64,000 nt of DNA from an uncultured Acidobacteriota bacterium (GTDB lineage: Bacteria; Acidobacteriota; Thermoanaerobaculia; UBA5066; Gp7-AA6), in the NCBI GenBank assembly GCA_963710945.1, contig CAVQCH010000002.1, positions 130,264 to 194,263 of the forward strand. Reading direction: 5' to 3'. Shown here in pieces: positions 31,890 through 43,746 of the stretch. A program made the position numbers and the translations under genes. The first letter of the stretch is position 1. The number at the start of each line of letters is the position of its first letter. The notes under the pieces are model-generated. The model was given only the letters and a program-made list of their open reading frames with translations. It made no database searches and had not been told where the DNA came from.

Positions 31890-32435
31890 TCATGGCTCGG
31901 TGACGATCACCCCATTGAGCTCGCAGATGTAGGCTACGAACCTTCCGTCCGGCGAGACCGCCAGACTGTGACAGTTCTCGAGGCCGCTTCTCCAGAGGAC
32001 GTTTGCGGGTCCGCCGCGCGGGGTAACGACCAGCTCGGTACTCAATTCGGTTTGCTTGAGTTCTACGGTCGTGCCGTTTTTCATTGCCACCTTCCGGGCG
32101 CCGTGATCGCCCGCCTTGTCCCACTTCGCGACCGCGCTTGCTTCGATCGGCGTCAGGGCGGAGCGCTTTGCGACACCGATCGCCTGTTCGTGCCAGGTGC
32201 CCGGCTCGAGGACGAGCGACTCGAGCTCGACCTTCATCCACCGCCCCTCGATGTTGGCGGCCAGCGCATCCCCTTCCAGAGACCAGACCGGGTACTCATC
32301 GACGGCCTGCGAAGAAATGACCAGGGCCGAACGAACCCCCAGGCGTCGCATCTCGGAAAAGACCCCGCGGTCGGCCATGGGCGTGTTTGTACAGGCGAGA
32401 AGACAAAATGTCGCAAGGGCTGGCTGGAACTTCAT
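31890..32435 (-). CDS. Lipoprotein, candidate immunity protein for the Rhs lipase toxin
   Basis: SD GGAGG, ATG at 32435, lipobox LLAC, C-terminal SPDGRFVAY. Directly downstream of the Rhs gene. Confidence 0.65.
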   Translation of the reverse strand: MKFQPALATFCLLACTNTPMADRGVFSEMRRLGVRSALVISSQAVDEYPVWSLEGDALAANIEGRWMKVELESLVLEPGTWHEQAIGVAKRSALTPIEASAVAKWDKAGDHGARKVAMKNGTTVELKQTELSTELVVTPRGGPANVLWRSGLENCHSLAVSPDGRFVAYICELNGVIVTEP

Positions 32436-32568
32436 CACTCCACCTCCGTCGGTTAGCCGTCGGGGATCTCGAGAACACTTGCGCCGATGAAGACACGCAG
32501 TCTCGGTCCTGCCCTGTAATCTTGAGGTGAGAGGTCGCTTCTCGTAGAGAGCTCTCTCTCGACACCAT

Positions 32569-35500
32569 TCAGTAATGGTCCCAGACGACGTCCTGACGAC
32601 GATCTGCCCTTTGGGTGGCATCGAGCTGCAAGTGCGGCAGAGTGAAGTCCCAGGCCCCCGGACTGTGGAGTCCTCCGTGGGACCCGACCGGCCCAGAGTC
32701 GACGTTCCAGTTGATATTGAGTGCATTTGGCTGAGTCCGCGCGGCCGGTCCGAATTCCGCCGGAGATTCGTAGTTGCCTCCGCCGCGTATCTGGACGCCA
32801 TCGAAAGAGTTGAGTACGTTGACGAAGTTGGCAACCGCTGAGGGGTCCTGAAGATGATAGCCGGGCCGGGAGGGCGCTCCCAGGGTGACCAGGTTGGACA
32901 CGGTTCGACCCAGGCCCACGTTGACGGCCAGGATTGCCACGTTCCCTCCGTGGCTATGCCCGATGATGTTCAGCTTTTCGCCAGGGGAAAAGTTGTATGC
33001 CTTGATGAAGCCGGCGAGATCGTTTGCCGCCTTGACTCGTGCGTGATGGTTGTCGGCCCCCGACCATTGGAACGATGCGTACGCCCGATCGGGTACCGTG
33101 CTGACGACGTGTTCGTAGAAGCGTCCGCCCTGGCGGAAGTCCGCGCTTCCGCGAGCGTCGGTACCGTGAACGAGCACGGTCAGCAGCCCGTCCGGATCGA
33201 TGTGCTTCATCGGGTTCCCGAGCGTGTATGCGTACCGATTCCAGGTTTGAGGATTGCCGGGACTTCCGCCCACCCGATCCGGGCTCAGGAACCGGCCCAT
33301 CCCGTGATCGTGCGTGCGCGCGTGATCGTAGTAACGCGTCGCGCCCGCGTCCTTCTCCATGAGGCAGAACGACAGGGACTGGGCCGGCGGCACGCCGCTC
33401 GTCTCCTCGCCGTAGGGCCAGTACTTGTGCGTCTCGAGGAGCTGGCCGGATTGGTTGAAGACGACACGGGGGCTGCCGAGGTGATCGGAGGTCGTGTACT
33501 GCCAGCCGGCAGGAGACGCGACGTAGGAAGCGACGAGCGTGTTGCCGAGGAACACGTTGTCCCGGGTCACCGATAGCGTGGCCGTCGCGGATCCGCCGGT
33601 GCCTCCCGCCATTTCCGTCACGATGCGGTTCTGTTCGTCGCGAAAAGTATAGATCGACCCGCGGGGCACCGGGTGGTACGCGGCGGCCCAGGCGACGCCG
33701 CCGGGAACGGCCGGAGTCTTCGCCATCCATACCAGGATCTGCCAGGAGGTGACGTTGCTGCCCGGGCAGAACTGGAGGGGGCTCGTGCTGCAGCCGGAGG
33801 TGATCCCCTCGCTGTACAGCGTCTCGATGTACGGCGCGAACGCCGCGTAGGGGCCGGAGCAGGTCACGTCCGTGAAGATCCCGCGGCAGGCCGGCGCCGC
33901 GTACGGCTCGGGCTTGTAGCCCTTGACGACGAAGGCGGCCATCTGCGCGCGGGTGACCGGCGCGTCGGGACAGAAGTCGGATCCGTTGCAGCCTGCGGCG
34001 ACGCCGTGGATGTACAGGCTCTGGATGTAGTTCGCGTCCGGATCCGAGCAGGGCGGGTTGGTGAACGCCGATCCGGTGCAGGGATTCGGGGCGCTCGACC
34101 ATCCCGACTTGCCCGCGGCCTTGTTGGCCTCGGTGATCAGCCGCGCCATTTCGCGCCGCAGGACGGAGGACGCCCCTGGAAACTTCGCGATCCGTTCCCC
34201 CGCGCCGTTGAAGAGAAACACCCAGTCGCTCGATGCGTTCGTGTTGCGGTACTGGCGGTCGAGGCCGTCCCAGGCCATCGTGTCGCCGTTGTAGGCGGTC
34301 AGGTTGCCGCGCGAATCGTAGGACGCGCCCCAGCTCGTGACGCGGTTGGTGGCCGGGTCGATCGCGATCGAGCCGCCGTTTTGCGTCAGATTCCCGTAGC
34401 GATCGTAGGCGAACGTGCGGGGCGTGGAACCGTACTTCGCCGACGACAGTCGGGACCGCGAGTCGTAGGTGAATGCGTCCGAAGCGCCGATCTTGAGGAC
34501 GTTGCCGCCGCCGTCGTAGCCGTAGGCGCCGCTCGACCAGAGCGAGTTCGAGATGCTCGCGGGGCGCGGGAGCATCGTCGCGTCCTGGGCGATGATGGTG
34601 ACCATCGGTGCGCCGGAATTGCCCGCCGTCCACGAGGCGAGGCCGGCCGCGGGGTTCCAGGCCGCGGCCGTGACGACCCCGACGCCGTTGGCGCTGATCG
34701 CGGTGGGCAGGCCGTTCGTGTACGTGTCCGCGACCGTGAAGCTTCCGGTCGAGCGCGGATGGCCGTGACTCGACACGAGGCCGAGATTCCCGTAGGAGAA
34801 GGTCTGCGACGCGGACGCGGCGAGGTCGCCGTTGCCGACGGCGGCCGTCAGCTTCGAGAGCCGGCCGCCCGCGTCGGAGTACTCGAACTGCTCGTCCACC
34901 ACGGGGCCGGCCGTCGGGATCCAGTTGTAGCCGTAGCGCCGCGTGAGCTTTCCACCCGGGTAGGCGCCGCCGGCGGATCCGGGGCTGCCGTCCACGCACG
35001 CGCCCGCGCCGTCGTAGCAGTTGACGACGTGCTTCGAGCCGCCCGCATCCTCCTCGACGGACCGTCCGGCGAAGTCGAACTTGCGCGCGACGACGAGGCC
35101 GCCCGGGCGCGTTTCCTTCAGGACGTTTCCGAGGCTGCCGATGCCGTCGTAGGAGACGGCCCCGCCCTCGGGCGTCGTCTCGGAGCGCAGGAAGCCGTTG
35201 GCGTCGTAGCCGAACGTGCGACCCTGGGCTCCCTGCGTCACGGACGTCAGCTTGCCGTTGACGTCGTAGCCGTAGGTCGTGCTCTCGCCGGTCGGCTCGG
35301 TGAGCTTCGTCAGACGGCCGAAGGCGTCGTGCTCGGCCGTGGATACGGGGTTCAAGCCCCCCGACGCGCAGGTCGCCTGCCCGAGGTTCGCGAACTGGGC
35401 GTTGACGCAGTAGGTTTTCACGGCCTCGCTCGTGTCGCTGTAGGGCTCCGCCCCGTCCGTGCGGTCCACGGTGTGCAGGCTCGAGTGCTTCGCGCCGACG

Positions 35501-38337
35501 ATCTGCTGGGGGCGGCCGAACGGGTCGAAGCACAGGCGGTACGTTCCCGGCGCCGCCGAGGGCCGGGACGTCGCCAGCGGGCCGCCGCTGAAGGCGCAGG
35601 TCGTGGCGAGGTCGGCCGTGACCGTCTCGGATGTCGCGTCCGGCACCCACTCCGACGCGAACCGCGCGTTGCCGGTCCCGTCGAATAGCGTGAACTTCTT
35701 GACGACGGACGCTCCTGGCTGCAGCCGCTTTTCGCGGATCCCGCGGCCGAGGCCGTCGTACTCGTAGCGCTGCCACGTCGCCGCGGCCGCGTTCGTCGGC
35801 GCGACGGGACAGGATTGCCGCGTTGTCGCGCGATAGGCCGACGTGGCGTTGGGCCCCTCGTAACAGACCCACGTCTTGAGCTCCGCGGAGGACGGCGGCG
35901 TGATCTGGCGGACCCGTCCGAGGGAGTCGTATGTGTATGCGGTCGTGCGGCCGGCCGGGTCGGCCGCGGTCTTGATCCAGCCCGTCGTCGCGTCCCGCGT
36001 GTAGCCATGCAGAGCGAAGGTCGGCGTCCCGACGGCGCCGTTCACGAACCGTTCCGTCAGGAGCTCGCCGTTCTGGTGCGTGTAGGTCTTGCCGAAGAGG
36101 TCGCCGTCCTGGCCGACCGAGCCCGGAAACGTGGCGTAGTTGGCCGAACAGTAGGTTCGCGACGGCGTCGAAGGCGAGGCGAAGGTCTTCGTGAACTCCT
36201 TGTCGACGCTGCCGTGCCCGTCGTCGTAGCGGCAGGCGAGAAACGCGAGGTCCCGCGCGGCGTCGTAGACGAAGCGTCCCTTGAGGAATCCGTCGGAGCG
36301 GTCGAACTCGAAATACTCGTCCCGCACCGACGAGCCCTCCGTCACCGTGCGCCGTTCGTAGACGTTCGGCAGGACGAGGCCGCCCGCGGGCGGGCCCGTG
36401 ATCCAGTTGACCGGGTTCCAATCCGTCACGATCGTGCGGGCGTCGCCGCCGAGGGTGCCGCCGTGCGTCTCCGTGTCGTAGTGGCGGCCGTTGTTCTCCC
36501 AGGTGTCGTTGACGGCCGAGAAGGTGGTCAGGTGGTACGGGCAGCTGGCGCAATTTCCGGCGCCGTGGATCGTCTTCTCCGACTGCAGGCGCCGGTTCCC
36601 GACCTTGTCCGTCGGGTTGTCGTACTCGAACGTCTTCTGGAGGACGCGCAGGGCCTTGCTCGCGCAGAACGGCTTGTCGGTCGCGTCTCCGGGGCAGAGC
36701 GGCTCGGAGAGGTCGGCCTGCGAGGGCTCGGTCTCGAAGACGCGCTCTTCGACGTCGGCGCCCACGCGGTCGCCCGGCGCGCTGTACTTCGCCTGGGCGG
36801 GGAAGGGTCCGAGCAGCCGCGGGCTGCTCGTGAAGAGGAGTACCTTCGCGCGCCTGCGGCCCGCGTCGGCGGCGGCGTTGCGATCGGTGGCGGGCTGCAC
36901 GACGATCGTCAGCGTCTGCGGCTCGCCCGACCCCGACTCGCCGCGCGGCAGCGCGTACTGCTTGTAGTCGGTCACGTTCACGGACGCGCCCACGGTCTCC
37001 GTGCGCTGGATGACGCCCGTCTGCACGTCCGTCCACCGCAGCTCGTTGTCCTCGACGCAGTCGCCGGGAGCGATGTCGGGCGCGAGCTCCTCGGGGTCCG
37101 CGCCTCCGCAGAACTGCCCGGTGTAGGGCACGAGGATCGATGCGATCGAGGGCGGGGCGAGCGAGGGGCAGCCGTTCCGGAGCGCCCCGCTGCGGCCGTG
37201 ATGGAAGTTCCAGTTCGCCCAGCAGTATGCGATCGATCCCTGCGTGGGAAGCGTGACCTTCGCGAGGAACCCCTTGACATAGGTGAACTGGTACTTCGGC
37301 GCAGCGCCCGAATCGTCGGCCGGCAGGTCCAGGCTCGCGAGCTCCTGGAGGTTCGCATAGAGCCACAGGGCGTTCCCGTTCGCGCTGCCGCAGAACTTGC
37401 CGTAGCTCTCGGCGGTCGGCGCGTAGCGCAGCGTCCACGACCGCGTGGCCGCGGCACCGTCGACGAATACCGGGAAGTCCACCGAAGTGATCATGTCGGC
37501 GACGCCGTTGACGGTCCCGAGGTTGACGTGGATCCTGCTGCCGGAAGGCAGCGTGACGTCCTTCGGCACCCACCCGCCGGCGGGCGGCGGCGTCGTGCAG
37601 AGCATCTTCATCCGCGACGCGATGACCGTTTCGCAGGTCGAAGCGCCGTACGTCCAGCACGGACTGAGCCCCGTGTAGTAGCTGACGGAGTAGGAATTCC
37701 CGAAGGGATCCGCGACGGAGGTGAGGTACCAGCCGTCTCGCGCGAGCTGGAAATCGTGGGTGCCGGTCACGCCGGCGCCGCTGACCTGCTGGTCGAACGA
37801 ATAGTGGTTGCCGTCGCCGTCCCACATGTCGAAGGGGCCGGTGCCCGTCAGGAAGAGCGGCGATCCGTCGCTCGTGACCCAGCCGTTGCCGCGCTCGGCG
37901 TTGAAGGCGTGCTGGCTGCCGTCGGGGCCGAAGTAGCAGTTCGACCAGGTCGCGCCGTGCTTGCACTGCTTGATCGCGCCGAGCGTCAGCTCCCATCCGA
38001 TCGGGAGCGACGGGTTGCCGACGAGCGGTTTGTAGAAGAAGTCGGGACTCTGCAGCTGCGAGGCCGGGCTGCCGAACTCGTCCACCCGCGAGTTGTAATT
38101 GAGCGCGAACTGGACGCGAAGTTTCGGTCCGACGGGATACGACGGCCCGATCGCGATCGGGATCGTCAGCTGGCCGTTGTACAGGTTGATCGAGTCGATC
38201 GGGCCGTGGTCGAACACGCTGTGCACGTATCCCGGAGCGCCGTCGGAATCGTTGTCGGGGCCGCTCTGGGCGCGGCTGGCAGAAACGTTTGTCACCAGGG
38301 AGCAGAGGGCGAGCACCGGCGCGAGCATCCTTCTCAT
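32569..38337 (-). CDS. Rhs/YD-repeat polymorphic toxin with signal peptide, internal SLH domains and C-terminal alpha/beta-hydrolase
   Basis: YD repeats, Rhs core DHLGSPR...WNRYAYTLGNPMKHIDPDG, SLH motifs VTRAQMAAF and GITSGC, C-terminal GHSHGG. Confidence 0.92.
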   Translation of the reverse strand: MRRMLAPVLALCSLVTNVSASRAQSGPDNDSDGAPGYVHSVFDHGPIDSINLYNGQLTIPIAIGPSYPVGPKLRVQFALNYNSRVDEFGSPASQLQSPDFFYKPLVGNPSLPIGWELTLGAIKQCKHGATWSNCYFGPDGSQHAFNAERGNGWVTSDGSPLFLTGTGPFDMWDGDGNHYSFDQQVSGAGVTGTHDFQLARDGWYLTSVADPFGNSYSVSYYTGLSPCWTYGASTCETVIASRMKMLCTTPPPAGGWVPKDVTLPSGSRIHVNLGTVNGVADMITSVDFPVFVDGAAATRSWTLRYAPTAESYGKFCGSANGNALWLYANLQELASLDLPADDSGAAPKYQFTYVKGFLAKVTLPTQGSIAYCWANWNFHHGRSGALRNGCPSLAPPSIASILVPYTGQFCGGADPEELAPDIAPGDCVEDNELRWTDVQTGVIQRTETVGASVNVTDYKQYALPRGESGSGEPQTLTIVVQPATDRNAAADAGRRRAKVLLFTSSPRLLGPFPAQAKYSAPGDRVGADVEERVFETEPSQADLSEPLCPGDATDKPFCASKALRVLQKTFEYDNPTDKVGNRRLQSEKTIHGAGNCASCPYHLTTFSAVNDTWENNGRHYDTETHGGTLGGDARTIVTDWNPVNWITGPPAGGLVLPNVYERRTVTEGSSVRDEYFEFDRSDGFLKGRFVYDAARDLAFLACRYDDGHGSVDKEFTKTFASPSTPSRTYCSANYATFPGSVGQDGDLFGKTYTHQNGELLTERFVNGAVGTPTFALHGYTRDATTGWIKTAADPAGRTTAYTYDSLGRVRQITPPSSAELKTWVCYEGPNATSAYRATTRQSCPVAPTNAAAATWQRYEYDGLGRGIREKRLQPGASVVKKFTLFDGTGNARFASEWVPDATSETVTADLATTCAFSGGPLATSRPSAAPGTYRLCFDPFGRPQQIVGAKHSSLHTVDRTDGAEPYSDTSEAVKTYCVNAQFANLGQATCASGGLNPVSTAEHDAFGRLTKLTEPTGESTTYGYDVNGKLTSVTQGAQGRTFGYDANGFLRSETTPEGGAVSYDGIGSLGNVLKETRPGGLVVARKFDFAGRSVEEDAGGSKHVVNCYDGAGACVDGSPGSAGGAYPGGKLTRRYGYNWIPTAGPVVDEQFEYSDAGGRLSKLTAAVGNGDLAASASQTFSYGNLGLVSSHGHPRSTGSFTVADTYTNGLPTAISANGVGVVTAAAWNPAAGLASWTAGNSGAPMVTIIAQDATMLPRPASISNSLWSSGAYGYDGGGNVLKIGASDAFTYDSRSRLSSAKYGSTPRTFAYDRYGNLTQNGGSIAIDPATNRVTSWGASYDSRGNLTAYNGDTMAWDGLDRQYRNTNASSDWVFLFNGAGERIAKFPGASSVLRREMARLITEANKAAGKSGWSSAPNPCTGSAFTNPPCSDPDANYIQSLYIHGVAAGCNGSDFCPDAPVTRAQMAAFVVKGYKPEPYAAPACRGIFTDVTCSGPYAAFAPYIETLYSEGITSGCSTSPLQFCPGSNVTSWQILVWMAKTPAVPGGVAWAAAYHPVPRGSIYTFRDEQNRIVTEMAGGTGGSATATLSVTRDNVFLGNTLVASYVASPAGWQYTTSDHLGSPRVVFNQSGQLLETHKYWPYGEETSGVPPAQSLSFCLMEKDAGATRYYDHARTHDHGMGRFLSPDRVGGSPGNPQTWNRYAYTLGNPMKHIDPDGLLTVLVHGTDARGSADFRQGGRFYEHVVSTVPDRAYASFQWSGADNHHARVKAANDLAGFIKAYNFSPGEKLNIIGHSHGGNVAILAVNVGLGRTVSNLVTLGAPSRPGYHLQDPSAVANFVNVLNSFDGVQIRGGGNYESPAEFGPAARTQPNALNINWNVDSGPVGSHGGLHSPGAWDFTLPHLQLDATQRADRRQDVVWDHY

Positions 38338-38363: not shown

Positions 38364-38431
38364 CCGGCGAATCTCTGGTTATGAATTGTCGCGAGCGGCC
38401 ACGCGCGCCGTGGCGGACTTGCGGGGGAGAG

Positions 38432-41060
38432 CTATCGGCCGCGGCCGAGCAGGCGCGACCAGAAGGTCGGCCTGCGCCAGGACTCGATGTTCTTCACGAA
38501 ATAGAGCGCGCTTTGATAGTGCTGGCACGAGTACGCGTAGGACGTGCCATCGGGCGTCATCACGACGGCGCGCACGGCCACGCCCGCGGTGTCCGGCGGC
38601 GCGAGCTCCTTCCAGAGCGTCGCGCGGCCGCTTTCGACGTCGATCTTCTCGACTCTTGCCGGAATCTCGCCCATGCGGAAGACGAAGAAACTCTTGCCAT
38701 CCGCCGCCCACTGGACGGGAACGAGGAGCCCTGTCAGGCCCGGGACCGGGCGCGGTTGCCCTCCGTCGACGGGGCACAGCGCGATCTGATTCTCGGGCGA
38801 GCGCGCAACCACCAGGAGCCCGTCCGGCGAGAGCGCGTTGCCCCCGGCGACGAGCTCGTACCCTTCCGGAGCGATGCGCCGCGGCTCGCGCCCCTGCGGG
38901 TCGACGACGAAGATGCCGGTCTTCCCGCCCTTCGCCTGCCCCCACACGAGAACCCTCTTGCCGTCGCGGAACCAGCTTGCCCACCGGATGGCCTCGAAGA
39001 ATCCTTCGCTCACCGTTCTCGGCGCTCCGGCCGCCGTCGGGAGCGCCAGGAGCTTGCCATGCTGGCTCGCGAGCACCCACGCCCCGTCGGGCGAGAGGCC
39101 CGTGCGCGACACCTTCACCCAGTCGAACCGGCGGCGAATCGTCCCCCTTCGCGATCCAGACGTTCTCCGCCTCCTGCACGAAGGCGTCTCGCAGGACGAT
39201 CAGTCTTGCCGTCGTCGGAAATGTCGACCACCCGCAGGTCCGTTCGGCTGACGACGCGCGATTCGGACTTCTGGCCCGACGAGCAGGCCGTGTGCCCATT
39301 CTTCCTGGTCGAAGAGCGTGAGCAGGGCTCTCCCATCGCGGGAGACGTCGTGCAGGTCGGCGGTGAACGGCGCGCGGTCGATCATGCGCTGCCGGCCCGA
39401 GAGGTCGATAGCGATGAGGGGTGTCGACGCCGCCTCGTCGTTGGTTGCCGGAAGCCAGACCTCGTCGCCGTCCGGCGACCACGGGGAGCTCCACCAGTCC
39501 GGCCAGAGGGGGCCGAGCACGGTCTTGCGGTTCTGAGAGTCGATGACGGAAAGCGAGTAGCCGTTGTAAGGCAACCCTTCGTAGAAGAGGATTCGGCCTC
39601 CCGATGGGAGACACGCGCGGCGACAGAATCCAGGCCGAGCTCTCGTACACCAGTCGGCCGGGCGGGTATTCCAGCCGCTGATGTGCGCCGTCCTGTCGGA
39701 CCACCGCGAGGTCCTTTCCATCGGGCCCCCAGTCGGCAAACTGCACGTCGCGCAGGACCTCGCGGGGAGATCCGCCCGAAAGCGGCACGACCGCCAGAGT
39801 CCCGCGGCGGGTGTAGAGGTTGTAGTCGATCTTCGGCTCGAGAAGGATGGCCATTTCGCCGCGCGACGAAACGGACAGAAGCTCCGCGCTCGGCAGGGGC
39901 AGAGCCGTGGATTCCCGACCCCCCGGGCGCGTCGAGAAGATCCGGGATGGCGTCCCGTCCCAGTCGGCGCTGTAGAGAATCGTCTGGCCGTCCGGGGCGA
40001 AGCGGGCGTTGCTGATGAAGCCGCGCCGGTAGGTGAGACGTTCGTAGGTCGGAAAAGAGCGGGCCCTGGCGCCGGCGAACCATGACCCTGCCAGGGCGGC
40101 GGCAAGCAGCGCCAGCGCTGTCGCGACGGCCATTCGGGCGCGCGACCGGCGGGGAAGGCTTGCTTCCGTCACTCGCGCCGCGCCGCTCGTCGTTGGAAGG
40201 CCCGATAGCGCCTCGAGGGCGAAGGCGATGTCGCTCGAAGCGGACTGGAACCTGCGCTCGGGGTTCTTCTCGAGGCAGTGGCGCAGGATGCGCTCGAGGC
40301 CCGGGCTGACGTTCTGGTTGGTGACGGAGAGGTCCGGCGGGTCTTCCTTCAGGATCGCGGCCATCGTTTCGCCGGCCGAATCGGCGTGGAACGCGCGCTT
40401 GCCCGAGAACATCTCGTAGAGGATTGCCCCGAAGGAGAAGATGTCGCTCCTCGCGTCGGCCGGCCGTCCCTTGACCTGCTCGGGCGACATGTAGGCGAGC
40501 GTGCCCATGACGACGCCGGGCTCGGTCGCGGAGGCGACGGTCGGCAGGTTCGTCGCGCCGGCGGCCGGCTCGACCTGCGTCAGCTTCGCCAGGCCGAAGT
40601 CGAGGATCTTGACGCGGCCGTCCTTCGTGACGAAGAGGTTCTCGGGCTTCAAGTCCCGATGGACGATGCCCTTGTCGTGCGCGGCGGCGAGGCCCTGAGC
40701 GATCTGGATGGCGTGGTCGATCGCGCTGCGCAACGGCAGGCTCCCGGAAGCGAGCGCCTGGCGCAGCGTCTCGCCCTCGAGCAGCTCCTGGACGACGTAG
40801 GGAGCGCCGTCGCTCGGGTTCGTCCCGATGTCGTAGACGGCGGTGATGTTCGGGTGGTTCAGGACTCCCGCGGCTTTCGCCTCCTGCTCGAATCGTCTCA
40901 GCCGGTCGGCGTCGTTCGAAAACGAGGCCGGAAGAACCTTGATCGCGACATCGCGGCCGAGCCGCGGATCCTTCGCCCGGTACACCTCTCCCATGCCGCC
41001 CGCGCCGATCGGCGCGAGGATCTCGTAGGGACCGAGCCTCGTTCCGGCGGCGAGGCTCAT
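38432..41060 (-). CDS. Hanks-type Ser/Thr protein kinase with TM and PD40/TolB-like propeller (frameshifted)
   Basis: [20 protein letters not shown] and GTLAYMSPE motifs. Repeated SPDG/APDG motifs across several frames. Confidence 0.88.
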
Positions 41061-43746
41061 GGGCGTTTCTGGTCCGAGAGCGTCATGAGCCAGAGCGAGG
41101 AGCCGCCGTTCTCACGACAGTAGTAGAGGAACCGTCCGTCGGGCGAGATCGTCGGCTCTTCCAGAAAAAGTCCCGCATCGGGAAAATGGGTGACCTGCTG
41201 GAGCGGCCCGCCCCCGGTCGGAACGCGATAGATGTTGCGGTGGCTCGGCTGGATGTAGATCCACTTTCCATCCGGCGAAAAGAACGGATGCCGCATCCGC
41301 TCGTAGCCGGTCGTCAGCTGCTTCAGCGGGCCGCCGGCGGCGGGCATGCTGAAGAGCTGGACGATGCCGTCCTTGGTGCCCGTGATCGCGATCCACCTTC
41401 CGTCGGGGGAGAAGACGCTGTCGAACTTCGCGCCGGGCGTATCGGTGAGCTGGGTCGCCTTGCGCGTGTCGAGATCGAAGGAGAAGATCTGCTGTACCCC
41501 GTTGACCTCGTCGGAATAGAGGAATCTCTTCCCGTCCGGCGACGGTCCGATGGCGAAGGCGCCCTGGGCCACCCGCGTGAAGACCTGCTCCGCGCGGCTG
41601 CCGTCCAGGGCGACGATCCAGTTCGAGCTGCGCTGGCCCTCTTCGGAGCGGCTGACCAGCGAGTTGACGTCCGTCCAGCCAGACGGTGCCCACTTGCGCG
41701 ACGTCTTCCCCGGGTAGCTGCAGCCTCTCGCGGCGGCGGCTCTCGACGTCGAGCACTTCCACTTCCTTGTGGCCGAGGGTGTCGCTCACGAGGGCGACGC
41801 GCCGGCCGTCGGGCGACACGCTCGGATAGCTGTCGGTGACGCGGCCGCTCGTCAGCGGCTCCTCGGGTCCGGCGGGCGATTCCCCTCCGGGCGAGAGCGG
41901 CAGCCGTGTCAGGTTGCGCGAGGCCTCGAGCTCCGGGACCGCGAGCCGGAGGCCGTCGCGGGTGATCGCGAATTCCAGGACTTCGGTGGTCATGAGGCTG
42001 ACGGTGGACGGGGCGCCCCCGACGACCTGGCCATTCGACGAGACCTCCACGAACTGGATACGGCTGCCGCCCTGCGGGTCGCGGACGATGAAGTAAAGCC
42101 GGTTCGAAGAGGGATCCCATGCATGGCCGAGGCCGGCGGCGACCAGCGGGTGCGCCTTTCCGCCCCCGGCCGGCATCAACATGATGCCGTCGGGCTGCGT
42201 CTCGAGGCTGATCCATCTTCCGTCCGGCGAGCACGCGATCCGGCTGATCTCCCACGTCGAGGCCTCGCTCGGCAGCACCGCCCGCGGCGCGCCGCCGCTG
42301 GATGGCACCTCCATGATGGAACGCCGGACCTCGGAGCCGCTCACGTAGAGAATGCTCTTGCCGTCCGGGCGCCACGCGGGGAAGTTGGCGTCCGGAGCCA
42401 GGCGCCGCGCGGCGCCGCCGAGAGTCGGTACTGTCCAGAGATCTCCTCCCAGCGTGCGGACGTTCTGGCCGTACGTCCCGCCGATCCGGATGAGACCGCT
42501 CTTCGAGGAGCGGGTCGAGACGAAGGCGACCGCGTTTCCGTCGGGAGAGAAGGCGGGCTGGACGTCCTGGGCGGCGTCGCTCGAGATGTTGATGTCCTGT
42601 CCGGCGTCTCCGCGGCGGACGTAGACCTCGAAGTTCCCGCTGCGGTCGGAGGCGTAAGCGAGAAGGCTGCCGTCCGGCGACCAGCTCGGCCACTCGGAAT
42701 GACCCCCGCCGCGCGTGATGCGCGCGAGCTTCGTGACGACGGGGATACGGGCGCCTGCTGGATGCGGAGCGAAGCGCCAGGACAGGACGGACGCGAGGAC
42801 CGCCGCCGCGATCGCCGAGGCCACGAGCGTCCATGGTCGCGCCCCGCGACGGCGGGCAGACGCCGCTTCTGGCGCCGCCGTCGGCGCTTCTTCGGATGTC
42901 GCGTCGATCTCGAGCCGGGCGTCGGCAATGTCGTGAAGCCGCCGCGTCGGCTCGCGGTCGAGGCAACGCTTCAGGAGCCGGCGGACGGAGGGAGGCGTCG
43001 AGGCCGGAAGCGCCGTCCAGCCCGGCTCGGTCTTCAGAATTGCCGCGAGCGTGTCGGAGACCGTCTCTCCCTCGAACGCCTTGCGCCCGGTCAGCATCTC
43101 GTAGAGAACGGCGCCGAAGGCCCAGATATCCGTCCGCTTGTCGACGGGTTTCCCGCGGGCCTGCTCGGGAGACATGTATGCCGCCGTGCCGATGACGACG
43201 CCCGCCTGCGTGGCGGCGGCCGTGAGCGTCGGAGAGTGGGAGATCTCGGGAGACGAGGCGTCCCGGGTCAGGGCCTTGGCGAGGCCGAAATCGAGGACCT
43301 TGACCTTGCCCTCCGGGGTCAGCTTCACGTTGGCCGGCTTCAGGTCCCGGTGAACGATCCCCTTCTCGTGCGCGGCCTCGAGCGCGTCGGCGATCTGCCG
43401 CGCAATGGCGAGGGCCTCGTCGACCGGGATCGGGCCGGACGCGATCCTTTCCGCCAGCGTCTCGCCCTCCACCAGCTCCAGGACGAGCGCTCGCGTGCCG
43501 CCCGATTCCTCGAGGCCGTGGATGTGCGCGATGTTCGGATGGTTGAGAGACGCCAGGACCTGCGCCTCGCGCTGGAAGCGCGCCAGCCGCTCGGCGATCG
43601 GCGGCGAAGGCGTCGGGCAGCACCTTGATGGCCACCTCGCGGTTGAGCTTGCCATCCCGCGCCCGGTACACCTCTCCCATCCCGCCCGCGCCCAGAGGCG
43701 AGAGGATTTCGTAGGGTCCGAGCTTGGTGCCCGACGAGAGGCTCAA
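41057..43746 (-). CDS. Hanks-type Ser/Thr protein kinase with TM and PD40/TolB-like propeller (frameshifted)
   Basis: TTG start, [29 protein letters not shown] and many SPDG repeats. Stop overlaps the next kinase ATG. Confidence 0.88.

Follow-up and report, generated by a model that had tools for sequence, protein, structure and literature searches.

How is an Rhs toxin held and positioned by a bacterium whose genus appears to have no type VI secretion system (T6SS)? The question is raised by a gene in a 64,000-nt stretch of DNA from an uncultured Acidobacteriota bacterium of the genus Gp7-AA6 (GenBank assembly GCA_963710945.1, contig CAVQCH010000002.1, positions 130,264 to 194,263), called the window below. 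The gene encodes an Rhs/YD-repeat protein of 1922 amino acids (aa), P0001, in one uninterrupted open reading frame (ORF). It is the sole Rhs gene found by a tblastn search of the protein against its own assembly (3.97 Mb in 7 contigs, 79% complete). P0001 has a predicted Sec signal peptide, and one beta-hairpin of its YD-repeat shell contains a 177-aa insert that is modeled as a complete triad of S-layer homology (SLH) repeats. On balance we favor a reading of P0001 as a capsule of the polymorphic Rhs toxin type that is exported by Sec, does not depend on a T6SS and is tethered to a pyruvylated glycan of the envelope.

The SLH triad in the shell of P0001

The N-terminus of P0001 looks like a Sec signal peptide of the signal peptidase I (SPI) type. 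As read from the sequence it has a charged n-region, a hydrophobic core and an SRA↓Q site. A MRRMLAPVLALCSLVTNVSASRA↓Q-type N-terminus followed by (A)QNGPDND is found in most of 119 homologs (more than 100), which supports the signal peptide claimed in an initial annotation of this DNA made from the letters alone. A lipobox reading of the Cys in the signal peptide was rejected: this Cys lies in the hydrophobic core and is not conserved, and the residue at -1 is Leu. Further downstream, YD repeats were matched by PF05593 (RHS_repeat, E = 3.7e-22, four stretches) and TIGR01643 (E = 8.3e-16), and the Rhs core by TIGR03696 (49.2 bits, cut-off 32.5), ending in HIDPDG↓L. These matches support the YD repeats and the canonical core ending in DPDG that had been described before. 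The core motif RYYDHARTHDHGMGRFLSPD...NRYAYTLGNPMKHIDPDG↓L is kept throughout the family. Cleavage at DPDG↓L would be expected by analogy with known Rhs and TcC cores; in P0001 only the motif is present. The TEN_YD-shell match is faint, and residues 1 to 719 match no Pfam domain even at E values up to 10. As the initial annotation had stated for PAAR and VgrG, the Pfam/NCBIfam search of P0001 (E ≤10 for residues 1 to 719) gave no match to PAAR, prePAAR, VgrG or a clade domain; FN-plug, NHL and TTR domains were not detected with Pfam either. There are 34 Cys in P0001, 8 of them within the insert. The earlier figure of roughly 30 is corrected accordingly, and the earlier remark on Cys pairs holds for four pairs in the insert.

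An AlphaFold2 (AF2) model of residues 519 to 1718, built from 39 sequences, shows a long run of beta-hairpins (predicted local distance difference test score, pLDDT, 86.4; predicted template modeling score, pTM, 0.84). In a Foldseek search with this model the top matches were T6SS Rhs cocoons (8QJA, 7Q97, 8QJC and 8UY4), followed at lower ranks by TcdB2-TccC3, teneurins and the teneurin-like protein 9IFO (rank 14, template modeling (TM) score 0.24). The E values for 8QJA, 7Q97, 8QJC, 6H6G and the teneurins were in the range of 1e-31 to 1e-24. By this comparison residues 519 to 1718 are modeled with the Rhs beta-cocoon fold. A helical module is found between the strands at model positions 864 to 869 and 1044 to 1048, and the model is consistent with an SLH module seated in a hairpin turn. 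At least five beta-hairpins and the core come after this hairpin, so that it is not the last YD hairpin as the initial annotation had it. The idea that the SLH module sits in a hairpin of the YD shell fits the models of both parts. We reason that the module would project outward from the shell, because a ligand-binding domain of 177 aa that is folded and stapled by disulfides would vie with the toxin for space in the lumen.

The insert lies between FNGAGERIAK (residues 1376 to 1385) and YTFRDEQNRIVTE (residues 1563 to 1575). Both flanks had been recognized correctly; the extent, given earlier as about 170 aa at about 33665 to 34185, is now placed at 33652 to 34182. The PF00395 (SLH) profile matched the whole protein with 22.3 bits and the insert alone with 30.6 bits in two stretches, both above the gathering cut-off (GA) of 20.8, which agrees with the SLH assignment made earlier. 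The insert consists, in this order, of a VLRREMAR helix, repeat A (F-T-N...GVAAGC...FCP...VTRAQMA), repeat B (F-T-D-V...GITSGC...FCP...VTSWQ) and a short W-containing tail. The LRREMAR helix corresponds to the TRAE-type motif of a split third SLH repeat. The eight Cys form pairs by position (1420/1430, 1450/1456, 1484/1493 and 1516/1524), and this spacing suggests two local disulfides per SLH repeat.

The AF2 model of residues 1371 to 1577 (64 sequences) has a pLDDT of 92.2 and a pTM of 0.86, with six helices and beta-strands at both ends. When this model was compared with the PDB by Foldseek, the top 15 matches were all SLH-domain trimers with 154 to 166 aligned columns, and all matches after the SLH trimers had E values above 0.3. 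The best match was 6BT4 (Bacillus anthracis Sap with a pyruvylated ligand; E = 1.4e-6, TM score 0.66); others included 3PYW (Sap) and the Paenibacillus alvei SpaA structures 7SV3 and 6CWC, several of them with pyruvylated ligand. A phmmer search of the insert against the PDB found only the SLH proteins SbsB and Sap. In the model the insert has the whole three-pronged-spindle SLH fold; by sequence it has two full repeats and a split, degenerate third. The initial annotation, which counted two repeats and a partial third, was therefore right for the sequence, and the fold is that of a complete triad. The half-repeat offset brings the ends of the insert together, as is required for a graft into a hairpin turn.

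Pyruvate binding by SLH domains involves the TRAE-motif residue SLH-Arg43 and the GIIxG-motif residue SLH-Gly29, and SpaA is functional with TRAE, TVEE and TRAQ motifs and two active grooves (Blackler et al., PMC6081394). R1394/R1395 (LRRE), R1463 (TRAQ), and G1449 and G1515 (GxxxG) are invariant in the 64 sequences of the insert alignment, and conservation within the insert is highest at the Arg43/Gly29 equivalents and the Cys pairs. Two of the three Arg43/Gly29 ligand sets are retained and the third is lost. By this criterion the insert may bind glycan through the two retained Arg/Gly pockets.

The insertion in relatives and the SLH proteins of the host

With residues 1300 to 1720 as query we collected 500 relatives and aligned the best 120 with MAFFT. 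Among these 120, an insert of 165 to 181 aa, usually with 8 Cys, is present in 76 clusters between ...GERxxK and YTxRDxxNRxxTE. About 30 relatives have just a turn of 5 to 12 aa at the insert point (...ERVAK-turn-YTLRDE...), and in seven this point is occupied by an unrelated insert of ~130 aa that has 2 Cys, forming one pair. These seven (P0089, P0109, P0111, P0113, P0115, P0117 and P0119) belong to one sister clade; their insert is beta-rich (…FYTITPCRLLDTR…GNLTVV.P…STLNY..G..RANNF…IDVSGYF) and matches no Pfam family. Because this unrelated domain is found at exactly the same turn, the hairpin turn seems to be a permissive socket for grafted domains. The insert-bearing sequences come from NCBI, ENA, JGI and Logan, and the named records are Thermoanaerobaculia (Acidobacteriota). 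When 30 related genomes were searched, at least 14 from the genus, and a single one from a different family, gave full-length Rhs matches that contain the insert. One insertion point combined with variable C-termini, as raised in the initial annotation, is what the family displays, with 51 unrelated C-terminal clusters among the 120 proteins beside the 76 insert clusters.

A tree was calculated from the flanking shell columns with the insert left out. The SLH insert is found on many deep branches, most of the insert-free forms fall in a single nested clade with 27 members, and the variant of ~130 aa makes up a clade of its own. Five changes of insert state are needed on this tree, compared with ~39 when the labels are shuffled. 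The simplest reading of the tree is that the SLH module was gained once, long ago, and was later lost in some lineages and replaced in one. In its conservation the insert comes close to the shell: relatives have a mean identity to P0001 of 0.56 in the insert, 0.60 to 0.66 in the shell and 0.29 in the toxin. A separate Rhs clade with support of 100 (P0100, P0105, P0087, P0120, P0081 and P0094) has a canonical Cys-SLH triad of three repeats elsewhere in the shell, ~200 aa further upstream, preceded by an IPT/TIG domain in P0081 and P0094. This triad is an independent placement of the same anchor. Another genome of the same genus has, at locus L029 (G007:C6:309000-328900), a complete Rhs gene with the SLH insert (2080-aa ORF) and behind it at least four orphan cassettes with homology to residues ~1161 to 1718. 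These four cassettes all begin ~220 residues ahead of the insert, and each includes an SLH insert and a core of its own.

The module has many paralogs in its own genome, where Pfam SLH gives 81 matches. A tblastn search of the assembly found ~65 ORF entries that match residues ~1390 to 1541 with 33 to 45% identity. They represent ~50 distinct proteins, most of which carry a Cys-bearing SLH triad at the extreme C-terminus (PPxC..F.DV.C...GITxGC....YCP...TRxQMA, three times), often with an IPT/TIG domain before it; examples among L017 to L026 are C3:451263-456730, C7:206735-213758, C7:553915-586055 and C5:39500-43222. Those sampled contain choice-of-anchor Q, J and GloVer domains, S8 protease, M36 metallopeptidase and Vgb-like propellers, which by their sequences are typical exported or surface types. 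In other phyla, proteins of these types use other C-terminal sorting tags. The SLH triad is likely the general anchor of this lineage, grafted here into an Rhs loop. SLH matches per genome range from 26 to 94 across the genus (one genus genome has 0) and from 0 to 5 in other families of the order. In a published survey, SLH and CsaB were described as "practically absent in the Gracilicutes", and the characterized SLH domains of diderms act in the periplasm and bind pyruvylated wall polymer (bioRxiv 10.1101/2021.05.31.446380).

The genome encodes one PF04230 pyruvyl transferase (146.9 bits; the PF04230 search also matches E. coli and other control genomes), located ~5 to 8 kb from two SLH-tailed genes on contig C5. 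The PF04230 domain shares one open frame of more than 1020 aa with a GT2 domain (C5:47939-51000, L033:940-3999), which represents a fusion protein or else a pair of genes that an assembly error has joined. Since Omp85 and secretins are encoded, the host can be classed from its gene content as a diderm with an outer membrane. The T6SS protein TssC (PF05943) was found in none of the 19 genus genomes, including that of P0001; six of the 18 others are 92 to 98% complete. The same search found TssC in three of the 12 genomes from other families of the order and is therefore able to detect a T6SS. As judged by TssC, the host genus has no T6SS, which extends to the whole genus the earlier remark that there is none in the window.

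The C-terminal toxin, the downstream gene and the neighborhood

The features of the locus are listed in Table 1. The 205 residues after DPDG resemble a small alpha/beta-hydrolase with the nucleophile elbow GHSHGG. Abhydrolase_8 matches the toxin with 24 bits (GA 20.5), and weaker matches were found to PGAP1, Lipase_2/3 and Tle3. Its sequence matches in the PDB are nearly all lipases, the best being Bacillus subtilis LipA (E ~0.01), whose AHSMGG aligns with GHSHGG. The toxin is probably a LipA-like lipase or esterase. Other C-termini of the family include a thioesterase/Tle1-like hydrolase, an eCIS_core domain and zinc-peptidase-like forms, and the same toxin types are found on insert-bearing and insert-free shells.

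Table 1. Features of the P0001 locus, with positions in the window
Feature	Position	Strand	Basis
Whole Rhs/YD-repeat polymorphic toxin gene	32569..38337	-	Intact ORF; RHS_repeat, TIGR01643 and TIGR03696 matches
Predicted Sec (SPI) signal peptide, residues 1-23 (MRRMLAPVLALCSLVTNVSASRA, then Q)	38269..38337	-	Sequence inspection
N-terminal region and main YD-repeat shell, residues 24-1385, 25 Cys	34183..38268	-	AF2, Foldseek
SLH-triad insert, residues 1386-1562	33652..34182	-	PF00395, AF2, Foldseek, conserved residues
Last shell hairpins and Rhs-associated core (residues 1639-1718 by TIGR03696)	33187..33651	-	Profile match
DPDG, predicted self-cleavage site, residues 1714-1717	33187-33198	-	Motif
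C-terminal toxin, putative LipA-like lipase/esterase, residues 1718-1922	32572..33186	-	Pfam and PDB sequence matches
Candidate immunity gene, 181-aa lipoprotein-like protein	31890..32435	-	Homologs downstream of related toxin

The gene downstream of P0001 has a strong Shine-Dalgarno sequence (GGAGGTG) upstream, and its 181-aa product starts like a lipoprotein (MKFQPALATFCLLAC). It is present in a single copy in the genome, and the protein matches no Pfam family. Two tandem homologs (41% and 38% identity; E = 5e-48 and 2e-40) are found at locus L027 directly after the Rhs gene for P0020, whose toxin is 66% identical. We consider the 181-aa protein a candidate cognate immunity protein; the assignment is provisional because the gene that follows is a different one at loci whose lipase toxins are related. 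A lipase that attacks membranes from the non-cytoplasmic side would be well matched by a lipoprotein facing the periplasm. Another candidate immunity gene, a 90-aa ORF at 32296-32568 abutting the stop codon of the Rhs gene, was rejected: it overlaps the 181-aa ORF in another frame, and only the latter has homologs downstream of a related toxin. The GC content over the toxin and the downstream gene is 0.57 to 0.61. Over 32350 to 33250, which spans the toxin domain and runs into the first part of the downstream gene, it is 0.57 to 0.64, compared with ~0.69 for the whole window. This dip is consistent with a horizontally exchanged toxin/immunity cassette.

The P0001 locus lies between MutL and Amidohydro_3 and is syntenic with the loci L010 and L027 of relatives. 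On its upstream side the window has a Ser/Thr kinase ORF of 893 aa and, after it, PD40/WD40 beta-propeller sequence (38379-41785, minus strand). The coding frame, as read from the GC content at third codon positions (GC3), switches at ~39800, 39350 and 39200, which reflects either assembly indel errors or a decaying gene. This block is absent from L010 and L027, where MutL directly adjoins the Rhs gene. We also considered a conserved gene for a secreted partner on the upstream side, and none is present: relatives have MutL there and the window has the kinase/PD40 region.

Proposed role of the SLH triad and relation to known systems

In the reading that we favor, P0001 would be exported by Sec with removal of its signal peptide and would fold outside the cytoplasm, where many of its Cys could form disulfides. 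The YD-repeat cocoon would enclose the LipA-like toxin, and the Rhs core would cut it free inside the cocoon at DPDG↓L, so that the lipase stays caged. The SLH trimer-type domain would sit as a graft in the turn of a single shell hairpin, 155 residues ahead of the site of cleavage, a seat that places its two ends side by side. Through the two retained Arg43/Gly29 pockets it would bind pyruvylated envelope glycan. This tether would hold the loaded capsule on the envelope of the producer, either at a periplasmic wall polymer (bound to the sacculus) or at the cell surface if the outer membrane is crossed. The toxin of the tethered capsule would be used against neighbors, and the downstream lipoprotein would protect the membranes of the producer. 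An anchor in a loop would make sense because the C-terminus of an Rhs protein is the caged, cleaved toxin and a C-terminal anchor is impossible. This logic is supported by the separate Rhs clade with its SLH triad at a different shell site.

Several points weigh against the tether. The third SLH repeat is split and degenerate, with TSWQ at the position of TRAE. PF04230 proteins also modify exopolysaccharides, so that the presence of a pyruvyl transferase is permissive and not specific. The host is a diderm, and no outer-membrane route was identified for P0001; nor was a TcA-like partner or a T6SS seen that would serve exit of the toxin from the cocoon and entry into the target. On the immunity side, the more distant lipase-toxin loci are followed by small, unrelated membrane proteins instead (L010:11880-12089 and L028:5223-6157; 69 to 119 aa with 2 to 4 membrane spans), a gene type absent from the window. 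The tether role itself is read from sequence and models.

The main rival explanation takes the SLH triad as a receptor-binding module, by which a released cocoon recognizes pyruvylated glycan on related target cells. Polymorphic toxins act mainly on close relatives, which would show the same glycan, and the genomes of the genus carry many SLH modules (26 to 94 matches each). The unrelated ~130-aa domain in the same hairpin of the sister clade looks as if binding modules were exchangeable, and in TcB and teneurins domains that loop out of YD shells mediate partner binding. However, the module is a close paralog of the C-terminal anchors of the producer, and the polymer of the producer is therefore the one expected to be bound first. 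In addition, a wall-bound polymer of a diderm target would lie beneath the outer membrane, and no release or uptake machinery was identified. We consider targeting rather unlikely; of the two glycans, that of the producer is probably the one bound. A version of it, which we likewise hold to be doubtful, makes the late-shell hairpin a modular display socket in which the SLH triad reads a lineage-specific target glycan, and P0001 a kin-addressed, one-polypeptide analog of Tc toxins. The SLH module, the ~130-aa beta-rich domain or nothing would then be gained, swapped or lost at the hairpin. If true, the capsule would be part of a large, unexpected SLH/pyruvyl-glycan surface-display system in a Gracilicutes lineage.

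It is also conceivable that the insert is a structural relic, a former SLH domain that no longer binds glycan and is kept for shell stability or oligomerization. The split repeat with its lost Arg (TSWQ) and the poorly conserved Trp13 positions would agree with such a relic, as would those lineages in which the insert was lost and the Rhs protein still looks intact. We find it improbable, given that the most conserved positions of the insert are the Arg43/Gly29 equivalents and the Cys pairs, that a second clade independently gained a full canonical triad, and that working SLH trimers of solved structure use just one or two grooves (PMC6081394). One might also suspect an artefact of assembly or annotation, for example a chimeric join or a neighboring gene with a frameshift, from an assembly that is 79% complete in 7 contigs and from the frame switches just upstream (38379-41785), which suggest indel errors or decay. 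Misassembly had been named in the initial annotation as a possible flaw. Against it stand the uninterrupted ORF, the same junctions in 76 independent clusters from four sequence sources, the insert in at least 14 genomes of the genus and the orphan cassettes of another genome, which contain the insert as well. An artefact is hardly credible and is effectively refuted, as far as other assemblies can show.

Secreted YD-shell toxins with a wall anchor are known from Gram-positive bacteria. B. subtilis WapA is a Sec-exported, wall-anchored Rhs toxin. WapA of Streptococcus suis is another (PMC12704120). P0001 shares with WapA the Sec signal, the YD shell, the Rhs core, the polymorphic C-terminal toxin with an adjacent immunity gene (a candidate in P0001), a dedicated wall-binding module for retention at the cell wall (predicted for P0001) and independence from a T6SS. 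It differs in that the wall-binding repeats of WapA are N-terminal and not of the SLH type and its hosts are monoderms, whereas P0001 has an SLH triad in a shell hairpin and a host with an outer membrane. Recent work has also described teneurin-like proteins of bacteria that have a Sec signal and, at the N-terminus, SLH or cell-wall-binding domains (bioRxiv 10.1101/2025.11.11.687626). Like the SLH-YD-shell fusions of Gram-positives, P0001 combines a signal peptide, an SLH anchor and a YD shell in one polypeptide with a caged variable toxin. The triads of the Firmicutes fusions are terminal, canonical and free of Cys; that of P0001 is internal, offset by half a repeat, equipped with four Cys pairs and found in Acidobacteriota. 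P0001 further differs from the SLH-bearing teneurin-like fusions by its canonical Rhs core with DPxG, and none of their FN-plug, NHL and TTR domains was detected in it with Pfam.

As in the SLH trimers of S-layer proteins (Sap, 3PYW and 6BT4; SpaA, 6CWC and 7SV3), the insert has Pfam SLH matches and a modeled spindle fold (TM score up to 0.66), and like SpaA it retains a TRAE-type Arg and a GxxxG Gly in two pockets. Its identity to Sap and SpaA is 14 to 21%. Unlike them it appears to have two local disulfides per repeat, its third repeat is split between the insert ends, and it sits in a beta-hairpin of another domain and not at a terminus. With T6SS Rhs effectors (RhsA 7Q97, Tse15 8UY4, RhsP 8H8A) and TcB-TcC (4O9X, 6H6G), P0001 has in common the cocoon fold, the Rhs core, the DPxG self-cleavage motif and a variable encapsulated toxin (predicted for P0001). 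TcB also carries a domain inserted in its shell, a beta-propeller. In contrast to these systems, P0001 lacks matches to PAAR, VgrG and a clade domain, belongs to a genus in which no T6SS was found, and has no TcA partner in sight; it has a signal peptide, 34 Cys and a longer shell (~1500 aa without the insert). A search of the literature on SLH or S-layer homology together with Rhs, YD repeats or polymorphic toxins found no description of an intra-shell SLH module or of the P0001 family. The statement in the initial annotation that the architecture is not a characterized system therefore stands for the SLH module within the shell and does not hold for Sec-exported, wall-anchored Rhs toxins as such. 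What is new is the internal placement of the SLH triad and the host lineage.

Most of what is understood about Rhs toxins concerns cargo of T6SSs or, in Gram-positives, wall proteins of the WapA type. The P0001 family offers a testable handle on how Sec-exported Rhs proteins are positioned and delivered in other diderm phyla. The handle is a concrete one because the SLH module is well understood down to its key residues and the host lineage has no detected T6SS. Evidently a complete folded domain can be accommodated in a hairpin turn of the YD shell: SLH triads occur at no fewer than two shell sites, and one of these sites holds another domain in a sister clade. This is relevant to the engineering of Rhs and Tc cocoons as display or delivery scaffolds. 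The locus also exposes a large SLH-anchored exoproteome (~50 proteins) together with a pyruvyl transferase in Acidobacteriota, to be set against the near-absence reported for Gracilicutes (bioRxiv 10.1101/2021.05.31.446380).

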